A stretch of DNA of 58,123 nucleotides, from NCBI GenBank assembly GCA_016180645.1, contig JACPAV010000015.1, positions 62,001 to 120,123 of the forward strand, given 5' to 3'. Both the position numbers and the translations under genes were made by a program. The first letter of the stretch is position 1. Each line of letters begins with the position of its first letter. Positions 1 through 30,255 of the stretch are shown one piece after another. Source of the DNA: Nitrospirota bacterium. Its GTDB lineage: Bacteria > JACPQY01. The notes under the pieces were generated by a model. It was given only the letters and a program-made list of their open reading frames with translations. It was not told the DNA's origin and made no database searches.

Positions 1-3000
1 TCCCGGTTCAGCCGGATTCAGGACACCACTCCACCCCCCGCGCCGGACCCTGCGAAGCTCACTGTGACAATGAATCCACCTGGCGCCGGTGATGCCCTGA
101 GCGGGGCCGCGGGCGCGGTGGAGGCCTTGGCCGTGGTCCGTGTGTACAAGGATGGTCTCCTGACGACCTCTATCGGTTCCGGGCAGGCCACGGGCAATGG
201 ATCACTGATCGCGATTTCGATCGGTGACAATCAGGCGGATGCGAACAACAAGATTTACCTCATCGCCGTAGACAAGGCGGGCAACATGAGCCCGGTAACA
301 ACCATGACCAACGACATCATGCCTCCGGACACGTCTTTCGTAGGGGCGGGCTTGCCCGCCCTCCTGAGCAACTCCATTTCCGCAACATTCACCTTCACGT
401 CCACCGACACGACGGCGACTTTCCAGTGTTCCGTGGACAGCGCAGCCTATTCCACCTGCCTCAGTCCGCTCGTCCTGAGCGTGTCGAAGGACGGTCTCCA
501 CACCTTCGGCGTTCGCGCTGTAGATCAAGCCGGCAATCCGGACCCGACCCCCGCCTCCCACACCTGGACTCTGGATACGACGCCTCCGAACACGCTCTTC
601 GTAGGGGCGGGCTTGCCCGCCCTCCTGACCAATTCCACGTCCGCCTCGTTCTCCTTCACATCCAATGATACGGCTGCCACTTTCGCGTGCAGTCTGGATG
701 GTGCGACCTTCGCCTCCTGCACCTCGCCCAAGACGTACACCTCAATCCCGGACGGCCCTCATACCTTCCAAGTGAAAGCAACAGACCAGGCCGGCAACGA
801 GTCCGCTGCCGCCTCATACACGTGGACGATCAACACGATCCCACCCGACACGATACCCCCCACGTTTGCGGGCCTGGTCTCCGCCACGGCGGTCTCCACT
901 TCCCAGATTGACCTCACGTGGTCCCCTGGCTCCGACAATCTCAGTCCCGCCTCGGATATCACCTACGAAATCTGCCGGGCGACCGGCGCCGGTGCCTGCA
1001 CATCGACCTTCACCGCCACCTACATCACCTCCGCGGGTGCGACTTCTTACAGCGTCCCGAGTCTCGCGTCCGGCGTCCGCTATTATTTCGTCGCAAGAGC
1101 CAGAGACCAAGCCGGCAACATCGACGCCAACACAACCGAGAAATCTGCCCTCACATGGTCAAGCGGAGTAGTCCAGGCAATCAGTGCCCACCGAAGTTTC
1201 CACACCTGTGGGCTCCTTTCTGACGGAACGGTCAAATGCTGGGGAGTTAATTCTTTGGGTCAATGCGGAAACGGAGCGACAACGCTCCAGCAGACGACCC
1301 CTGTGGCTGTTAGCTCGCTTACGGGCGTTGTGACGCTGGGGGCTGGGGGTGGTGGTTCCGGCAGCGCGAATGGTCACACATGTGCGGTTCTGTCCGATGG
1401 CACGGTCAGGTGCTGGGGGGCGAACAGTGCTGGCCAACTGGGCGATGGGACAACGTCGCCTCGGACCACTCCCGTCGCTGTCAGTGGCCTCGCCGGTGCC
1501 GTCACTGTCGCGGGCGGATGGAAGCACACCTGTGCTGTCATTTCGGACGGTTCGGTCAAGTGCTGGGGGTACAACCTCCAAGGTCAGCTTGGGGACGGGA
1601 CGACAGCTAACGGATTGACTTCTGCGGCTGTCTCGTCGCTCACCGGTGCTGTTGCAGTCGGGGCAGGGAGCAGTCACACGTGCGCGCTGGTATCCGACAG
1701 CACAGTGAAATGCTGGGGATTCAATGGTTATGGTTCCCTGGGGGATGGAACGACAGCCGATAAGCTCACCCCCGTCGCGGTGTCGGCTCTTTCCGGCGTG
1801 ATGGCCTTAGCCATAGGGACTTTCCAGACCTGCGCGCTTCTTTCGGACGGGACGGTCAAATGCTGGGGACGCAATGAGTCTGGTCAGCTTGGGGACGGGA
1901 CAACAGTCAACACACCCACTCCCGTCGCGGTTAGCAATCTTACGGGGGCAACGGCCATAGGCGCAGGAAACATTTACACCTGCTCACTCGTTTCCGATGG
2001 GACGGTCAAATGCTGGGGGTCCAATAGCTTCGGTCAGCTCGGCGATGGAACGAATGTTGACAAGGCAACTCCTGTTGTCGTCAGCGGCCTTACAAGCGCA
2101 ATGGCCGTCACAGTTGGGTACCAGCACACCTGTTCGCTCCTATCGGACGGGACGCCCAAATGCTGGGGATACAACTTTCTCGGCCAACTAGGCGATGGCA
2201 CCACGGCGACCAAGCCGACGCCCGTCGCCGTGACCTCTCTCGCCGGCCCGCTCGGCGTGAAACTCCCGCGCCTCCACGAATCCACCGCCTCCGGCGCCCC
2301 CGCCCGCCCCTTCCGTGAAGGGATCCGTACGGGTGGCAATAGCATTTCAGGCAACACATGCGTACTGGTTTCAGATGGAACAGTGAGGTGCTGGGGATCC
2401 AACGCTGACGGGCAGCTTGGCGACGGAACAACCGTTGACAAGACAAGACCCGTAACGGTGTCTTCTCTGACCAGTGCAGTTGCAGTTGCCACCAGGGGCC
2501 CTTCCGTGTGTGCGCTGGCATCGGATGGCAGCATCAAGTGTTGGGGAAAGAACTCATCCGGCCAACTGGGAGACGGGACATCCGTGAGCAGAACTGTTCC
2601 CGTGGCGGTTTCCGGGCTGACCGCGGCTATCGCGATCAGCGCGGGAGGCTCTCATGCCTGCGCTCTAGCGTCCGACGGAACCGTCAAATGCTGGGGAAGC
2701 AATGCTGGAGGTCAACTCGGCGATGGGACAACGGTGAATTCACTCACGCCGTTGACCGTAACTGCGCTTGTGGATGCCATCGCTGTCAGTGCGGGGCTCA
2801 TCCACACGTGCGCGCTCCTCTCGGATGGTAGCGCCAAGTGCTGGGGGGATAACCCGTACGGTCAGCTTGGCGATGGAACGAATGTTGACAAGGCAACTCC
2901 TGTGCTGGTGTCCACACTAACTTCTTCGATCTCGCTCGCGTCAGGTGGTTCCCACACGTGCGCCTTGGGATCGGATGGGACCGTGAAATGCTGGGGAGCC

Positions 3001-3396
3001 AATGGCAATAATCAGCTTGGAGATGGGTCAACCGGTGCATCGGGAAGAACCCCCGTGACAGTTACTTCGCTGTCAAGCGTGGTTGCGATAACTGCCGGCG
3101 GCTCCATCTCGATAGCTGGCGACCATACATGCGCGGTGATCTCGGACGGAACAGTCAAGTGTTGGGGAGCGAATTGGAAAGGGCAGTTGGGTGACGGCAC
3201 GACGGCCTTTAGATCAACCCCCATAGTAATCTCCGGACTTTCGGGCGTTCTTGCCGTCAGCGCCGGCTTCGACCATACCTGCGGCCTTCTGGGCAACGGC
3301 TCCGTCTTGTGTTGGGGAAACAACAAGTACGGCTCGCTCGGCGACGGGACGACGGTGAATCGGTTGACGCCCGTCCCGGTGACCAACCTGCCGTGA
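1..3396 (+). CDS. Surface protein, 5'-partial: Ig-like (DTTPP-type) domains + FN3 + two 7-bladed RCC1/BLIP-II propellers
   Basis: Frame is open from base 1. 14 repeats of [19 protein letters not shown] split 7+7 by a linker; FN3-like segment (IDLTWS...YYFVARARD). Confidence 0.9.
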   Translation, partial: SRFSRIQDTTPPPAPDPAKLTVTMNPPGAGDALSGAAGAVEALAVVRVYKDGLLTTSIGSGQATGNGSLIAISIGDNQADANNKIYLIAVDKAGNMSPVTTMTNDIMPPDTSFVGAGLPALLSNSISATFTFTSTDTTATFQCSVDSAAYSTCLSPLVLSVSKDGLHTFGVRAVDQAGNPDPTPASHTWTLDTTPPNTLFVGAGLPALLTNSTSASFSFTSNDTAATFACSLDGATFASCTSPKTYTSIPDGPHTFQVKATDQAGNESAAASYTWTINTIPPDTIPPTFAGLVSATAVSTSQIDLTWSPGSDNLSPASDITYEICRATGAGACTSTFTATYITSAGATSYSVPSLASGVRYYFVARARDQAGNIDANTTEKSALTWSSGVVQAISAHRSFHTCGLLSDGTVKCWGVNSLGQCGNGATTLQQTTPVAVSSLTGVVTLGAGGGGSGSANGHTCAVLSDGTVRCWGANSAGQLGDGTTSPRTTPVAVSGLAGAVTVAGGWKHTCAVISDGSVKCWGYNLQGQLGDGTTANGLTSAAVSSLTGAVAVGAGSSHTCALVSDSTVKCWGFNGYGSLGDGTTADKLTPVAVSALSGVMALAIGTFQTCALLSDGTVKCWGRNESGQLGDGTTVNTPTPVAVSNLTGATAIGAGNIYTCSLVSDGTVKCWGSNSFGQLGDGTNVDKATPVVVSGLTSAMAVTVGYQHTCSLLSDGTPKCWGYNFLGQLGDGTTATKPTPVAVTSLAGPLGVKLPRLHESTASGAPARPFREGIRTGGNSISGNTCVLVSDGTVRCWGSNADGQLGDGTTVDKTRPVTVSSLTSAVAVATRGPSVCALASDGSIKCWGKNSSGQLGDGTSVSRTVPVAVSGLTAAIAISAGGSHACALASDGTVKCWGSNAGGQLGDGTTVNSLTPLTVTALVDAIAVSAGLIHTCALLSDGSAKCWGDNPYGQLGDGTNVDKATPVLVSTLTSSISLASGGSHTCALGSDGTVKCWGANGNNQLGDGSTGASGRTPVTVTSLSSVVAITAGGSISIAGDHTCAVISDGTVKCWGANWKGQLGDGTTAFRSTPIVISGLSGVLAVSAGFDHTCGLLGNGSVLCWGNNKYGSLGDGTTVNRLTPVPVTNLP
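340..361 (+). repeat. GTAG-type REP hairpin inside the CDS (second copy 601-622)
   Basis: GTAGGGGCGGGCTTGCCCGCCC twice, encoding VGAGLPA; 7-bp stem. Confidence 0.7.
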
Positions 3397-3483
3397 TGTA
3401 TGTGATCTCGGCACTCGATATTGCGAACCGCCCCGGTATCGAACCTACCGTAAGGGGTGATGGGGTGGGGATGAGACTCTTCG

Positions 3484-27700: not shown

Positions 27701-30255
27701 ACATTCGTGATCGAGATCGAGGGAGGGACCCAGTCGTTCGTTTTGGACGTTGAGCCGCCTTGGTTCCCGGCGGCGTCGGTGGCGGTGACGTAAACGGTTG
27801 CATTGGTATTGTCGCCGATGCTGATCGCATCGAAGACGCCGCTCGCGGAGGCCGTGCCCTGACCGAGAAGCGCGGTGAGAAGCGCGTCGGCCCATACTTT
27901 CACAGTAGATGAGGCTTCCACGGCACCCCCTGCTCCGCTCACCGTATCGTTTGTTCCAGGATTATTCTGTGAAATGGTGAGCTTCGCAGGGTCCGGGGCG
28001 GAGGGGGCGGTCGTGTCGAGGGTCCAGGTGTATGAAGTCGTGCCTGGGTTTCCGGCGGGATCGGTGGCTTGAACGGTGAAGGTGTAAGAGCCGTCGCCCT
28101 TCGACAGGCTCAGGGCGAGCGGGGAGGAGCAGGTTGCGTACGAACCGGCGGCGCCAGGTTGATCGAGTTTGCAGGCGAAGGAGCAAGAGGGCGGGGCAAG
28201 CCCCGCCCCTACATCGGAACAGGCAAGAGAGAAGGAGACGGAGACTTGATTACTGACGGCTGAAGGCTGAGAGCTGATCGCTACAGTGGGCGGTGTGAGG
28301 TCGATGGTCCAACTGTAGCCCGCGGGGGTCCCGTCGGCATTGCCGGCGGGGTCGAGGGCCCGCACACTGAACGTGTGTGCTCCCGCCGTGAGGGGTGAGA
28401 GGGTGAGGGGTGAGGCGCAAGAGGCATAGGAAGCAGAGTCCGCGGAGCACTCGAACGAGCACCCCCCACCCGAACCCTCCCCCGCGGGGGGGGAGGGGCA
28501 GGAAAAGGTGAATGAGCCCGAAGTCTGATTGCTGACCGCTGACGGCTGACTGCGGATCGCTGTTTCAGGCGGTGTCGTATCGACCGTCCACGTGAACGAG
28601 GCCGGTGTGGGATCCTTGTTGCCGGCGGGGTCTACGGCGTAGACGGAGAAGGTGTGCGACCCTTCGACGGCGCTCAGGGTGAGCTGACTTGTACAGGGAG
28701 AAGGGGTGCCGGTGTCGAGTTGGCAGTAGAAAGAGCAGGACTGAGGGCTGAGGGCCGAGGACTGAGCCGAAGAATCGGAGCACGAGAACCCAAAGGTTGC
28801 CGTGGTCTTGTTGCTGATAGCTGACGGCTGTACGCTGATGGCTGTCTCGGGCGGGATCGTGTCGGTGGAGGGGGGCACGACCGCCCAGGTGTAGACGATC
28901 GGGTTTGAGGTTTTTCCATCCGAGGCGGTACCGCGAACGGAAAGGGTGTGGTTTCCCGCGGCAAGGCCCGTGAAGGTAATGGGGCTTGGACAGGCCGCGA
29001 ACGGCCCGCCGTCAAGAGCACAACTGAGGAGGCAGGTTCCGTTGCAAGCGAAGGAGAATGAGGCCGTCGTGTCCGTGGCGGCTTTCGGGGTTTCCGTGAA
29101 GCTTACGCTCGGCGGATTCTCCGCGCTCGGGGTTGAAGTCCCTCCGGAATCGCCGGCAGGCAGTTTGACGAGGAAAACCGCGTTCGCCGCCGAACCGACG
29201 ACGCCCCCGCCGGTCTTGGGGCGGACCGCGAAGCTGTGCGCGCCATCGGCAAGGCCCTGCCAGACATAGGTGGCTTCGCAGTCCGCGAAAGCTCCTTTGT
29301 CGAGAGAGCACTCGAACGCGCACCCTGCCGCGCGGTCGCAGCCGAAAGTGAAGACCACCGAGGTTGTCGCCAAGGTTACCCCCGAGCCGCACTTGTCCGT
29401 TCCTGCCGCCACGCACTGGAAGTTCGCTATCGAGGGCGCGGAGAGGACGGCGGCATCGACCGGGAGCGCAACCTGGACGTTCTGCTTGATCTGGATTTCA
29501 GCGGCGAGATCCTTGGCCGCGCCCTCGAGTTGCGGCTTGAGAGCAGCGACGATCCTGGAAATCTCCTCTTCCGTCAGCGGCCGCGTGTCTTTCGTGGGGT
29601 CGATCCCGAGATCCGGGGCTTTTTCCATGGCGAACGCCTGGACGAGGTTGGGCAGGCCGGACTTGTTGTTGGAGGGCATCGCTACGTCGATGGGGTCGAT
29701 GGGGGCATCCTGTATCCGGCCTCCGCTCACCGCCACGGAGGTCTCTGCCTTCAGGAGCGATATTTCAGGGTGGCCGGGGAGAATGAGAACGACGACAAAC
29801 ACGTGCACCCCTTCGGAAAGCGCCAGGGGCAAGGTGAGTTCCGTGACGAAGGCAAGCGCGTTCGGGCTTCGGGGCTGCCTGCCGATCCTGTCTCCAGAAA
29901 GTTCTTGCCTGGGCGGCGCGCCTGGAACCGGTTCCGGTTCCCCTCCGATCGCTCTCCTTCCCGCGCGAACACCGCCCATTGCGCCCGAGAGGATCTCTCC
30001 TCGGACGCCTTGGCCCACCATCTCATCGTCCACGCTCACGTCCACGGTTGCCGCCCGCACGCCCTGAAGCATCGCCGCCTGCTCGGACGTGAGAGGAACG
30101 GCCACGGTGACATCGCGGGCGCTTTCGCCGGCGGGATCAACGGAAACTCTTTTCTTCTTCTTGGACTTCCCACACCCGAGAGGTCCACATATCGCAAGGA
30201 CGAGAAGCGCGAATACGATGGTCGGCCATCGGCGCGATCGGCCCTCTGCTCCCAT
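24757..30255 (-). CDS. Large lipoprotein: multiple Ig-like domains + FN3 + RCC1 propellers (7+6 blades)
   Basis: PLGC lipobox; DTTPP Ig-like repeats; 13 near-identical 150-bp RCC1 repeats. Confidence 0.9.

Follow-up and report, generated by a model that had tools for sequence, protein, structure and literature searches.

Introduction

Repetitive extragenic palindromic (REP) elements with a GTAG tag have been described inside genes (Di Nocera, De Gregorio and Rocco 2013, PMC3733652), and Additional file 3 of that work includes intragenic Pseudomonas GTAG-1 REPs that code for VGAGLPA in Pput_0606, PFL_1383, and Pput_5167. Here, we report on two hairpin repeats, element 1 and element 2, that are read in frame in a giant surface-protein gene of a Nitrospirota bacterium; they lie in a 58,123-nt stretch of DNA (the window; G000:C10:62001-120123, from a genome of 4.72 Mb and 60.8% G+C). 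Element 1 resembles the Pseudomonas units in its GTAG head on a short G+C-rich palindrome, its in-frame placement in open reading frames (ORFs), its reading as VGAGLPA, and its membership in a superfamily associated with REP-associated tyrosine transposases (RAYTs). It differs from the units described there in that it lies deep within a structural domain and not near the protein end, recurs at the homologous position of tandem and paralogous domains, takes the place of canonical residues (net +2 to +3 aa) instead of just adding to them, and, within this genome, is found as a 22-mer subfamily only inside ORFs. Because element 1 has traits of the REP family and VGAGLPA units of Pseudomonas are already known, intragenic GTAG REPs are not a new kind of object; intragenic selfish repeats occur here, however, in an unusually systematic form.

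Over-represented words that are imposed on coding DNA where the peptide is tolerated, with no change in length, are familiar from DNA uptake sequences (USS/DUS), which are 9 to 12 nt long and spread by uptake bias and recombination; nothing ties the repeats studied here to DNA uptake. The comparison with Rickettsia palindromic elements is an analogy only, those elements being much longer (about 100 to 150 bp) than the 22- to 28-nt, GTAG-tagged elements of the window. As summarized in PMC3733652, the Rickettsia elements are likewise in-frame palindromes in functional genes, selfish DNA made into protein, but they insert in many unrelated genes, belong to CGTC or other classes and not to GTAG, and are not described there as replacing residues without a change in length. 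REPIN/RAYT systems (Bertels and Rainey 2011, PMC3116915; Nunvar et al. 2010, PMC2817692) share with this genome a REP-flanked RAYT, inverted doublets, and high identity within subfamilies. REPINs are extragenic doublets, whereas the copies described below are single hairpins in ORFs.

We consider it fairly likely that both hairpins are intragenic, in-frame copies from genome-wide palindromic repeat families that were copied into permissive spots of an immunoglobulin-like (Ig-like) domain. The data that carry this reading are family membership, reading frame, conservation at the DNA level, the lack of the peptides in foreign homologues, replacement that is length-neutral, and turnover between genera; we infer how the repeats were copied, how many times this happened independently, and that the copies are neutral.

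Results

Element 1 is a palindrome read in frame at the start of two tandem Ig-like domains

One exact match to the 22-mer GTAGGGGCGGGCTTGCCCGCCC lies at positions 340 to 361 and another at 601 to 622, both on the plus strand, and no other match with up to three mismatches exists in the window (chance expectation, 0.01; at least two matches in 0 of 100 shuffles). Both copies read GTA GGG GCG GGC TTG CCC GCC, or VGAGLPA (residues 114 to 120 and 201 to 207), directly after PPDTSF in copy A and PPNTLF in copy B, as an earlier note made from the sequence alone had stated. The identical run around the two copies spans 31 nt (TTC, the 22-mer, and CTCCTGA). The palindrome forms a stem of GGGGCGGG/CCCGCCCC closed by a CUUG loop, with the GTAG left outside the stem at one end in both window copies (GCAG in one genomic copy). 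The predicted RNA hairpins are stable (copy A, −17.8 kcal/mol, z = −2.76; copy B, −17.5 kcal/mol, z = −2.49; matched by 2 of 200 shuffles each).

Contigs assembled from four public DNA runs, all of one study and one of them possibly from the source sample, span positions 1 to 366, 338 to 627, and 603 to 1857 without a mismatch. An artifact of this assembly record alone therefore does not account for the two copies and their junctions, and we rejected that explanation. Over positions 1 to 3400, the contigs break at the 31-nt repeat, and no alternative letters are listed for positions 1 to 1200. None of the joints listed skips the 261 nt between copies A and B, a negative of little weight given that contigs drop rare variants. 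A look-up of RNA runs for positions 1 to 3400 listed none.

Element 1 belongs to a genome-wide REP family

Of 773 GTAGGGG sites in the genome, 371 are followed by a perfect hairpin. These sites include two subfamilies of 98 to 99 copies each and many smaller ones, which are set apart by fully compensated stems. The large subfamilies avoid long ORFs: only 10 of 113 and 31 of 122 copies fall in ORFs of at least 300 aa, compared with 78% of random positions. The subfamily of the 22-mer is small, with seven exact copies and three near variants only, and all ten lie as single units in ORFs, sense-oriented and read in the GTA GGG GCG frame. Across all REPs, enrichment in ORFs with the Ig-like domain was not evident (25 of 371 REPs in 4.7% of the genome, no clear excess over genome length). 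We rejected a clustered regularly interspaced short palindromic repeat (CRISPR) array as the source of the 22-mer repeats because their strands are mixed and their spacing is irregular.

Seven matches to Y1 transposases were found in the genome, one of which, a 159-aa ORF (C25:35023-35499), scores 100.4 bits against the NCBIfam model NF047646 for RAYTs (cutoff, 80). This ORF is flanked on both sides by a total of 12 REPs within about 620 nt, which belong to the GAGCATC, GAGGGTC, and GCGGATC subfamilies; none belongs to GCGGGC, the subfamily of the 22-mer. Elsewhere, the exact 22-mer was detected at 60 loci in other genomes and at 119 metagenome loci, in 91 distinct contexts. Its hosts include Omnitrophica, Desantisbacteria, Anaerolineae, Elusimicrobia, and other assemblies, and the foreign copies are noncoding, have mostly AT-rich flanks, and often form inverted doublets. 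The identity of the word across phyla may reflect a shared RAYT lineage, transfer, or convergence. Neither the CTCCTGA tail nor the domain context was present in any of the 91 public contexts, although the scans may omit records close to this genome. On these features, element 1 is classed by sequence as a GTAG-tagged REP of the GTAG-1 type, a class linked to RAYTs.

As a separate observation, the 22-mer is present in high copy number in one Omnitrophica and one Desantisbacteria assembly, in addition to its presence in several other phyla.

Conservation of element 1 is at the DNA level

With a local hidden Markov model (HMM), the Ig-like domain was detected 148 times in the genome, spread over 48 ORFs. 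A REP stands directly after PPDT, in the putative first strand of the domain (position a), in 7 of the 148. Five of the seven share the block GTAGGGGCGGGCTTGCCCGCCCTCCTG, one has GCAG, and one has a different stem. The last, GTAGGGGCGGCGTCCACGCCGCCC, is a 24-mer variant that reads VGAASTPPA in the next domain of the same gene, a gene other than that of copies A and B, and that, in a sister genus, is one arm of an extragenic inverted REP doublet that no long ORF spans. Other Ig-like domains carry REPs in a Cys-flanked loop, as does the paralogue in the window (positions 28189 to 28212), and the 22-mer is also found at two other, nonhomologous positions and in nonhomologous sequence (C10:46400).

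Among six position (a) copies, only 5 of 130 pairs of codons for the same residue differ within the nine-codon block, compared with 360 of 645 elsewhere in the domain (Fisher's exact test, P = 1.7e-32; pairs are not independent). All synonymous sites of element 1 are kept in five copies, and one further copy has a single change, on flanks that are saturated. The block includes rare codons (GTA, 6.3% of Val; TTG, 12.1% of Leu), and, for the given peptide, such an encoding has a probability of 5.9e-6 per copy. We conclude that the conservation of element 1 is at the DNA level.

Further in-frame REPs were noted in other genes. A 168-aa gene of the ChsH2 type (zinc ribbon and OB-fold; G000:C32:587-1093, or L262:388-894 on the minus strand) carries a close variant, the perfect palindrome GTAGGGGCGGGGCATGCCCCGCCCCTAC, read as VGAGHAPP inside the OB-fold match, which is only two residues longer than the stretch of the profile. 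Two giant Ig-domain ORFs (G000:C65:1-6244 and G000:C44:27-4023) hold 10 and 5 REPs, doublets included, which read RRGASLDAP... or, on the other strand, GGSEDPPLR.

The encoded peptides are absent from foreign homologues, and two of three sites show little or no change in length

We compared the domain with 120 homologues from other organisms. VGAG or VGAA stands at none of their 735 domain starts, LS.SK[DG] does not occur in them, and SPL.LS appears in 3 of 1,122 matched stretches, compared with 14 occurrences in the 148 domains of this genome. The stretch after PPDT is 16 aa long in 610 of 707 foreign matches; among local copies, it has this length in 43 of 68 that lack a REP and is 18 to 19 aa long in the seven that bear one (net +2 to +3 aa). 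The C.SP..G.H.F stretch, which accommodates element 2, is 8 aa long in 1,044 of 1,122 foreign matches and, in element-bearing copies, 8 aa long in the SKD form and 7 aa long in the VEG form. The Cys-flanked loop of the paralogue has about seven extra residues relative to its orthologue in the sister genus. From these lengths, only the loop site looks like plain insertion; the other two look like replacement with little or no change in length.

Element 2 is part of a second hairpin family, read in two frames

The second hairpin, judged from its letters, is the inner stem-loop of a distinct, cross-phylum repeat, whose family pattern is CCGCTC-RY-CCTGAGC-loop-TCGAAGG-RY-GAGCGG with the invariant core CTGAGC ... 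TCGAAGG. The window copy, CCGCTCGTCCTGAGCGTGTCGAAGGACG, is identical at 28 of 28 positions to a copy outside any long ORF (G000:C31:27323-27350). The pattern CTGAGC-N(2-6)-TCGAAGG has 45 matches in the genome, 42 of which were aligned, with two that overlap and one whose loop is odd left out; 19 of the aligned copies lie in long ORFs and 23 outside. In copies outside long ORFs, the stem is 11 bp long (CCGCTCACCCT/AGGGTGAGCGG) and a GAGCGG...CCGCTC hairpin lies upstream of it. Copies in ORFs keep the inner 5 to 6 of the 11 stem pairs, the outer six pairs holding mainly outside ORFs, and the window copy retains six pairs plus a wobble, with its outer pairs and upstream hairpin replaced by domain codons.

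The earlier note had observed that the stem at 466 to 493 differs from the copy near 28094 in the paralogue by compensatory changes (CGTCCT/AGGACG versus CGCCCT/AGGGCG), and had proposed covariation across a larger set of copies as a check. Both sequences read as stated, and the 42 aligned copies covary (score, 0.204 versus 0.143 in shuffled alignments, with 0 of 500 reaching 0.204; slid controls, 0.062 to 0.120). Pair 13-32 is C-G in 28 copies, U-A in 12, U-G in 1, and unpaired in 1; pair 12-33 is A-U in 13, G-C in 12, G-U in 6, and unpaired in 11. Copies inside and outside ORFs share three stem variants and two loop lengths, and the covariation counts few independent events because it reflects mostly these three shared stem subfamilies.

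The reading frame of the core depends on the loop: an 11-nt loop leads to TCG AAG GAC (SKD), and a 12-nt loop leads to GTC GAA GGG (VEG). Because one core is read in two frames, the conserved unit is DNA and not peptide. In ten SKD-type domains, synonymous differences number 107 of 359 within the block versus 781 of 1,442 elsewhere. Folding of the window copy is no better than that of shuffled sequences (−10.2 kcal/mol, z = 0.09; 99 of 200 shuffles), its minimum-energy fold being another small hairpin, and the paralogue copy folds as proposed with moderate support (−16.6 kcal/mol, z = −1.94; 11 of 200 shuffles). The core was found in 11 of 41 genomes, unrelated families included, and a reversed control was found in none. 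Four 16-mers of this family and their reverse complements matched no paper in the collection searched, and we therefore leave the family without a published name. Given the occurrence of the core in those 11 genomes, it may be the widespread repeat read as 'FDKLR/SLSKG'.

At positions 457 to 570, the summed contig depth in one DNA run was 3,427, compared with 4 to 14 in adjoining bins. The peak likely stems from copies of the second repeat family in other organisms of that sample.

Repeat recruitment recurs in the paralogue, where heptamer arrays occupy the element 1 position

The window encodes a paralogous giant Ig-like/RCC1 protein of 1,881 aa (Table 1), for which the earlier note had proposed that repeat recruitment recurs. 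Element 2, a REP, and heptamer arrays are all present in it. At the position of VGAGLPA, the paralogue has AISVQPSA, AIRSQPSA, or AISSQPSA, coded, as had been noted, by heptamers (four to five CAGCNNT units).

Arrays of at least four CAG[CT]NNN heptamers number 64 in the genome, compared with 2 to 17 for five control patterns. Thirteen arrays, on the coding strand of ORFs with the Ig-like domain, occupy the spot where the REP is otherwise found; several others are inverted pairs 50 to 70 nt apart. In the second domain of the paralogue, a loop (about 28500 to 28470, minus strand) is coded by another palindrome, CCCTCCCCC ... GGGGGAGGG, and similar SPSPLAGEGGGEG loops are present in three other genes.

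Carriers are scattered in the domain family, and REP variants differ between two genera

In a tree of 97 domain copies from which the element columns had been removed, the seven carriers of a position (a) REP are scattered (7 changes; shuffled mean, 6.9), and the tree suggests that they are polyphyletic. Collinear paralogues also differ, with a gene on contig C22 carrying REPs in its first two domains and its counterpart on C51 carrying the heptamer form.

The sister genus, represented by one other genome of the family, contains the REP superfamily (57 pattern matches versus 8 for a control), and its homologous domains carry in-frame REPs in the same loop, in other variants (VGAASSDPPS once and VGAVSSDPPS twice). 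The sister-genus orthologue of the third domain of the paralogue has no REP, and its element 2 stem has an A.C mismatch. Because the REP variants differ between orthologous loops, the pattern is one of turnover and not of conservation.

Discussion

Origin of the in-frame copies

In the scenario that we favor, repeats would have been copied from the repeat pool of the genome into tolerant parts of an Ig-like domain present in about 148 copies in giant surface-protein genes, probably more than once and at fixed spots: the first strand, the Cys-flanked loop, and the stretch after C-x-S-P. The event in the loop would be a plain insertion, and the events in the first strand and after C-x-S-P would be codon replacements. 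Since length changes little or not at all at these two spots, ectopic gene conversion, or insertion followed by trimming, would fit better than simple transposition; length-neutral replacement together with turnover between the two genera points to conversion from the repeat pool. The copies may persist since peptides rich in Gly, Ala, Pro, and Leu, or in Leu, Ser, and Lys, are tolerated, and their nucleotide identity would reflect recent copying or homogenization with the repeat family and not a dedicated function in this gene.

Several observations weigh against this scenario. The position (a) copies share a 27- to 28-nt block that runs 5 to 6 nt past the 22-mer, and this shared tail fits copying among paralogous domains better than independent transposition. 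No copy of the 22-mer lies outside ORFs of this genome, and none was found that could serve as a local extragenic donor of the exact subfamily. Perfect identity on a saturated background is also expected under purifying selection on DNA. An approximately unbiased (AU) test does not reject a single clade of the seven carriers (P = 0.112), leaving room for one origin followed by domain duplication. In addition, all ORF calls here are stop-to-stop frames and not predicted genes.

The expectation of purifying selection belongs to a first alternative, in which the hairpins in ORFs are selected cis elements: mRNA stabilizers, sites of translational or transcriptional pausing at domain boundaries of 5- to 6-kb messages, or sites of protein binding or RAYT cleavage for in-register recombination. 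Such a function would account for the intact synonymous sites of the 27-nt block in five copies, the fixed position in the first strand, the covarying stem of element 2, the stable hairpins of element 1, and the occupation of the same loop by REPs of a second genus; moreover, the 31-nt direct repeats, 261 nt (87 codons) apart, would permit in-frame loss or gain of a domain. However, most domain copies do without element 1 at this position, and REP variants turn over between orthologous loops. The earlier note had held that the hairpin is maintained as a DNA or RNA element inside the ORF, and the two halves of that claim fared differently. The repeats are indeed discrete DNA elements, with synonymous sites kept and family copies outside genes. 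Maintenance for a function in the gene would be harder to fit with the ORF copies of element 2, which keep about half of the stem, with the window copy, which folds like its shuffles, and with the sister-genus orthologue, with its mismatched stem and its loop free of a REP. We regard a selected cis function as unlikely.

We give similarly low credence to a second alternative, a single old acquisition in an ancestral domain followed by duplication of domains and genes, the block being kept identical by short-patch gene conversion confined to paralogues, without a continuing tie to mobile REPs. The shared CTCCTGA tail and the AU test are compatible with it, as is the single frame and strand of all copies. 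Against it, the neighboring domain of one gene holds at the same position a different REP variant that is extragenic in the sister genus, the 22-mer or its close variant is found at two nonhomologous positions and in nonhomologous sequence (C10:46400 and the ChsH2-type gene), and collinear paralogues differ in presence or absence.

More speculative, and in our view improbable, is the idea that the Ig-like/RCC1 surface-protein family uses its repeats (REPs, the second hairpin, and heptamer arrays) as in-register exchange points, with RAYT cleavage or hairpin-stalled replication driving conversion and domain shuffling across roughly 48 paralogous genes. If true, such points would constitute REP/RAYT-based variation of surface proteins and would also explain length-neutral overwriting by selfish repeats. 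Least credible of all is that VGAGLPA and PLVLSVSKD are conserved protein motifs and the palindromes by-products of codon choice or chance: the single reading frame of all element 1 copies would agree with this, but the identical codons include the rare GTA and TTG, the peptide is missing from every foreign domain start, the same DNA lies outside genes in this and other genomes, and the TCGAAGG core is read in two frames.

Copying from the repeat families, our preferred explanation, means that selfish palindromic repeats take over a segment of a folded domain, with the spots shared by many paralogues, and are not confined to loose tails. At least two unrelated repeat families do so in these domains, with a third, the heptamer arrays, at the same place. 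For annotation, this explains lineage-specific peptides such as VGAGLPA, LSLSKDG, and LSAVEG in giant proteins, and it cautions against assuming that a palindrome inside an ORF must be regulatory. For REP biology, the locus offers a natural test case, its length-neutral replacement and two-genus turnover being hard to fit with simple transposition.

Host gene and other features of the window

The features of the window are collected in Table 1. In the genome, frame 1..3396 extends to 1,657 aa from stop to stop (G000:C10:60422-65393), and its Pfam matches (Big_6, residues 37 to 103; Big_13, 210 to 279; fn3, 292 to 373; and 14 RCC1 repeats) all lie in one frame. D2 has no copy of element 2 and reads SPKTYTSIPDG instead. 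A single-sequence AlphaFold model of residues 100 to 287 was too poor for placing the element-coded residues (mean predicted local distance difference test score, 50.1), and a PDB sequence search for the domain fold gave a weak match only (2yn3, E = 0.092). Rfam had no matches at the gathering score across the whole window.

Table 1. Positions of the host genes, Ig-like domains, and in-frame repeats in the window
Feature	Coordinates	Strand	Basis or remark
Giant surface-protein gene, 3' part	1..3396	+	ORF list and translation; 5'-open in the window
Ig-like domain D1, residues about 103-197	307..591	+	Local HMM; element 1 at start, element 2 in second half
Element 1 copy A, GTAG-tagged REP-type palindrome with conserved tail CTCCTG(A)	340..367	+	22-mer at 340-361; reads VGAGLPALL
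Element 2, inner stem-loop CCGCTC-GT-CCTGAGC-GTG-TCGAAGG-AC-G	466..493	+	Reads PLVLSVSKD
Ig-like domain D2, residues about 190-284	568..852	+	Local HMM; element 1 at start
Element 1 copy B, same 22-mer and tail	601..628	+	Downstream of copy A by 261 nt (87 codons)
Paralogous giant Ig-like/RCC1 gene, 1881 aa	24757..30402	-	ORF list, translation, Pfam
Element 2 copy in paralogue ('28094 copy'), CCGCTCGCCCTGAGCCTGTCGAAGGGCG	28095..28122	-	Sequence
REP variant GTAGGGGCGGGGCTTGCCCCGCCC, one extra G:C pair	28189..28212	-	In-frame VGAGLAPP, Cys-flanked loop, third domain of paralogue
Four heptamer units, same position in third domain of paralogue	28249..28276	-	Sequence
Element 2 copy with 12-nt loop, CTCACCCTGAGCGCCGTCGAAGGGT	28648..28691	-	Reads LTLSAVEG; TCGAAGG core in another frame than in SKD copies
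Five CAGCNNT heptamer units, at the element 1 position of D1/D2	28810..28844	-	Sequence

Four giant genes with this Ig-like domain lie head to tail (G000:C10:45352-65393; 1,597, 1,994, about 1,324, and 1,657 aa), and the first ORF of the window is the last of them. Both RCC1 proteins also share an insert of about 80 nt between propeller blades (positions 2245 to 2325 on the plus strand and, in the paralogue, near 25.7 kb on the minus strand). The insert is read as GP(L/M)..., and a blastn search found 20 copies of it in the genome at 80 to 100% identity, many in giant Ig/RCC1 genes and some elsewhere; it may represent a fourth repeat family that is read in frame.

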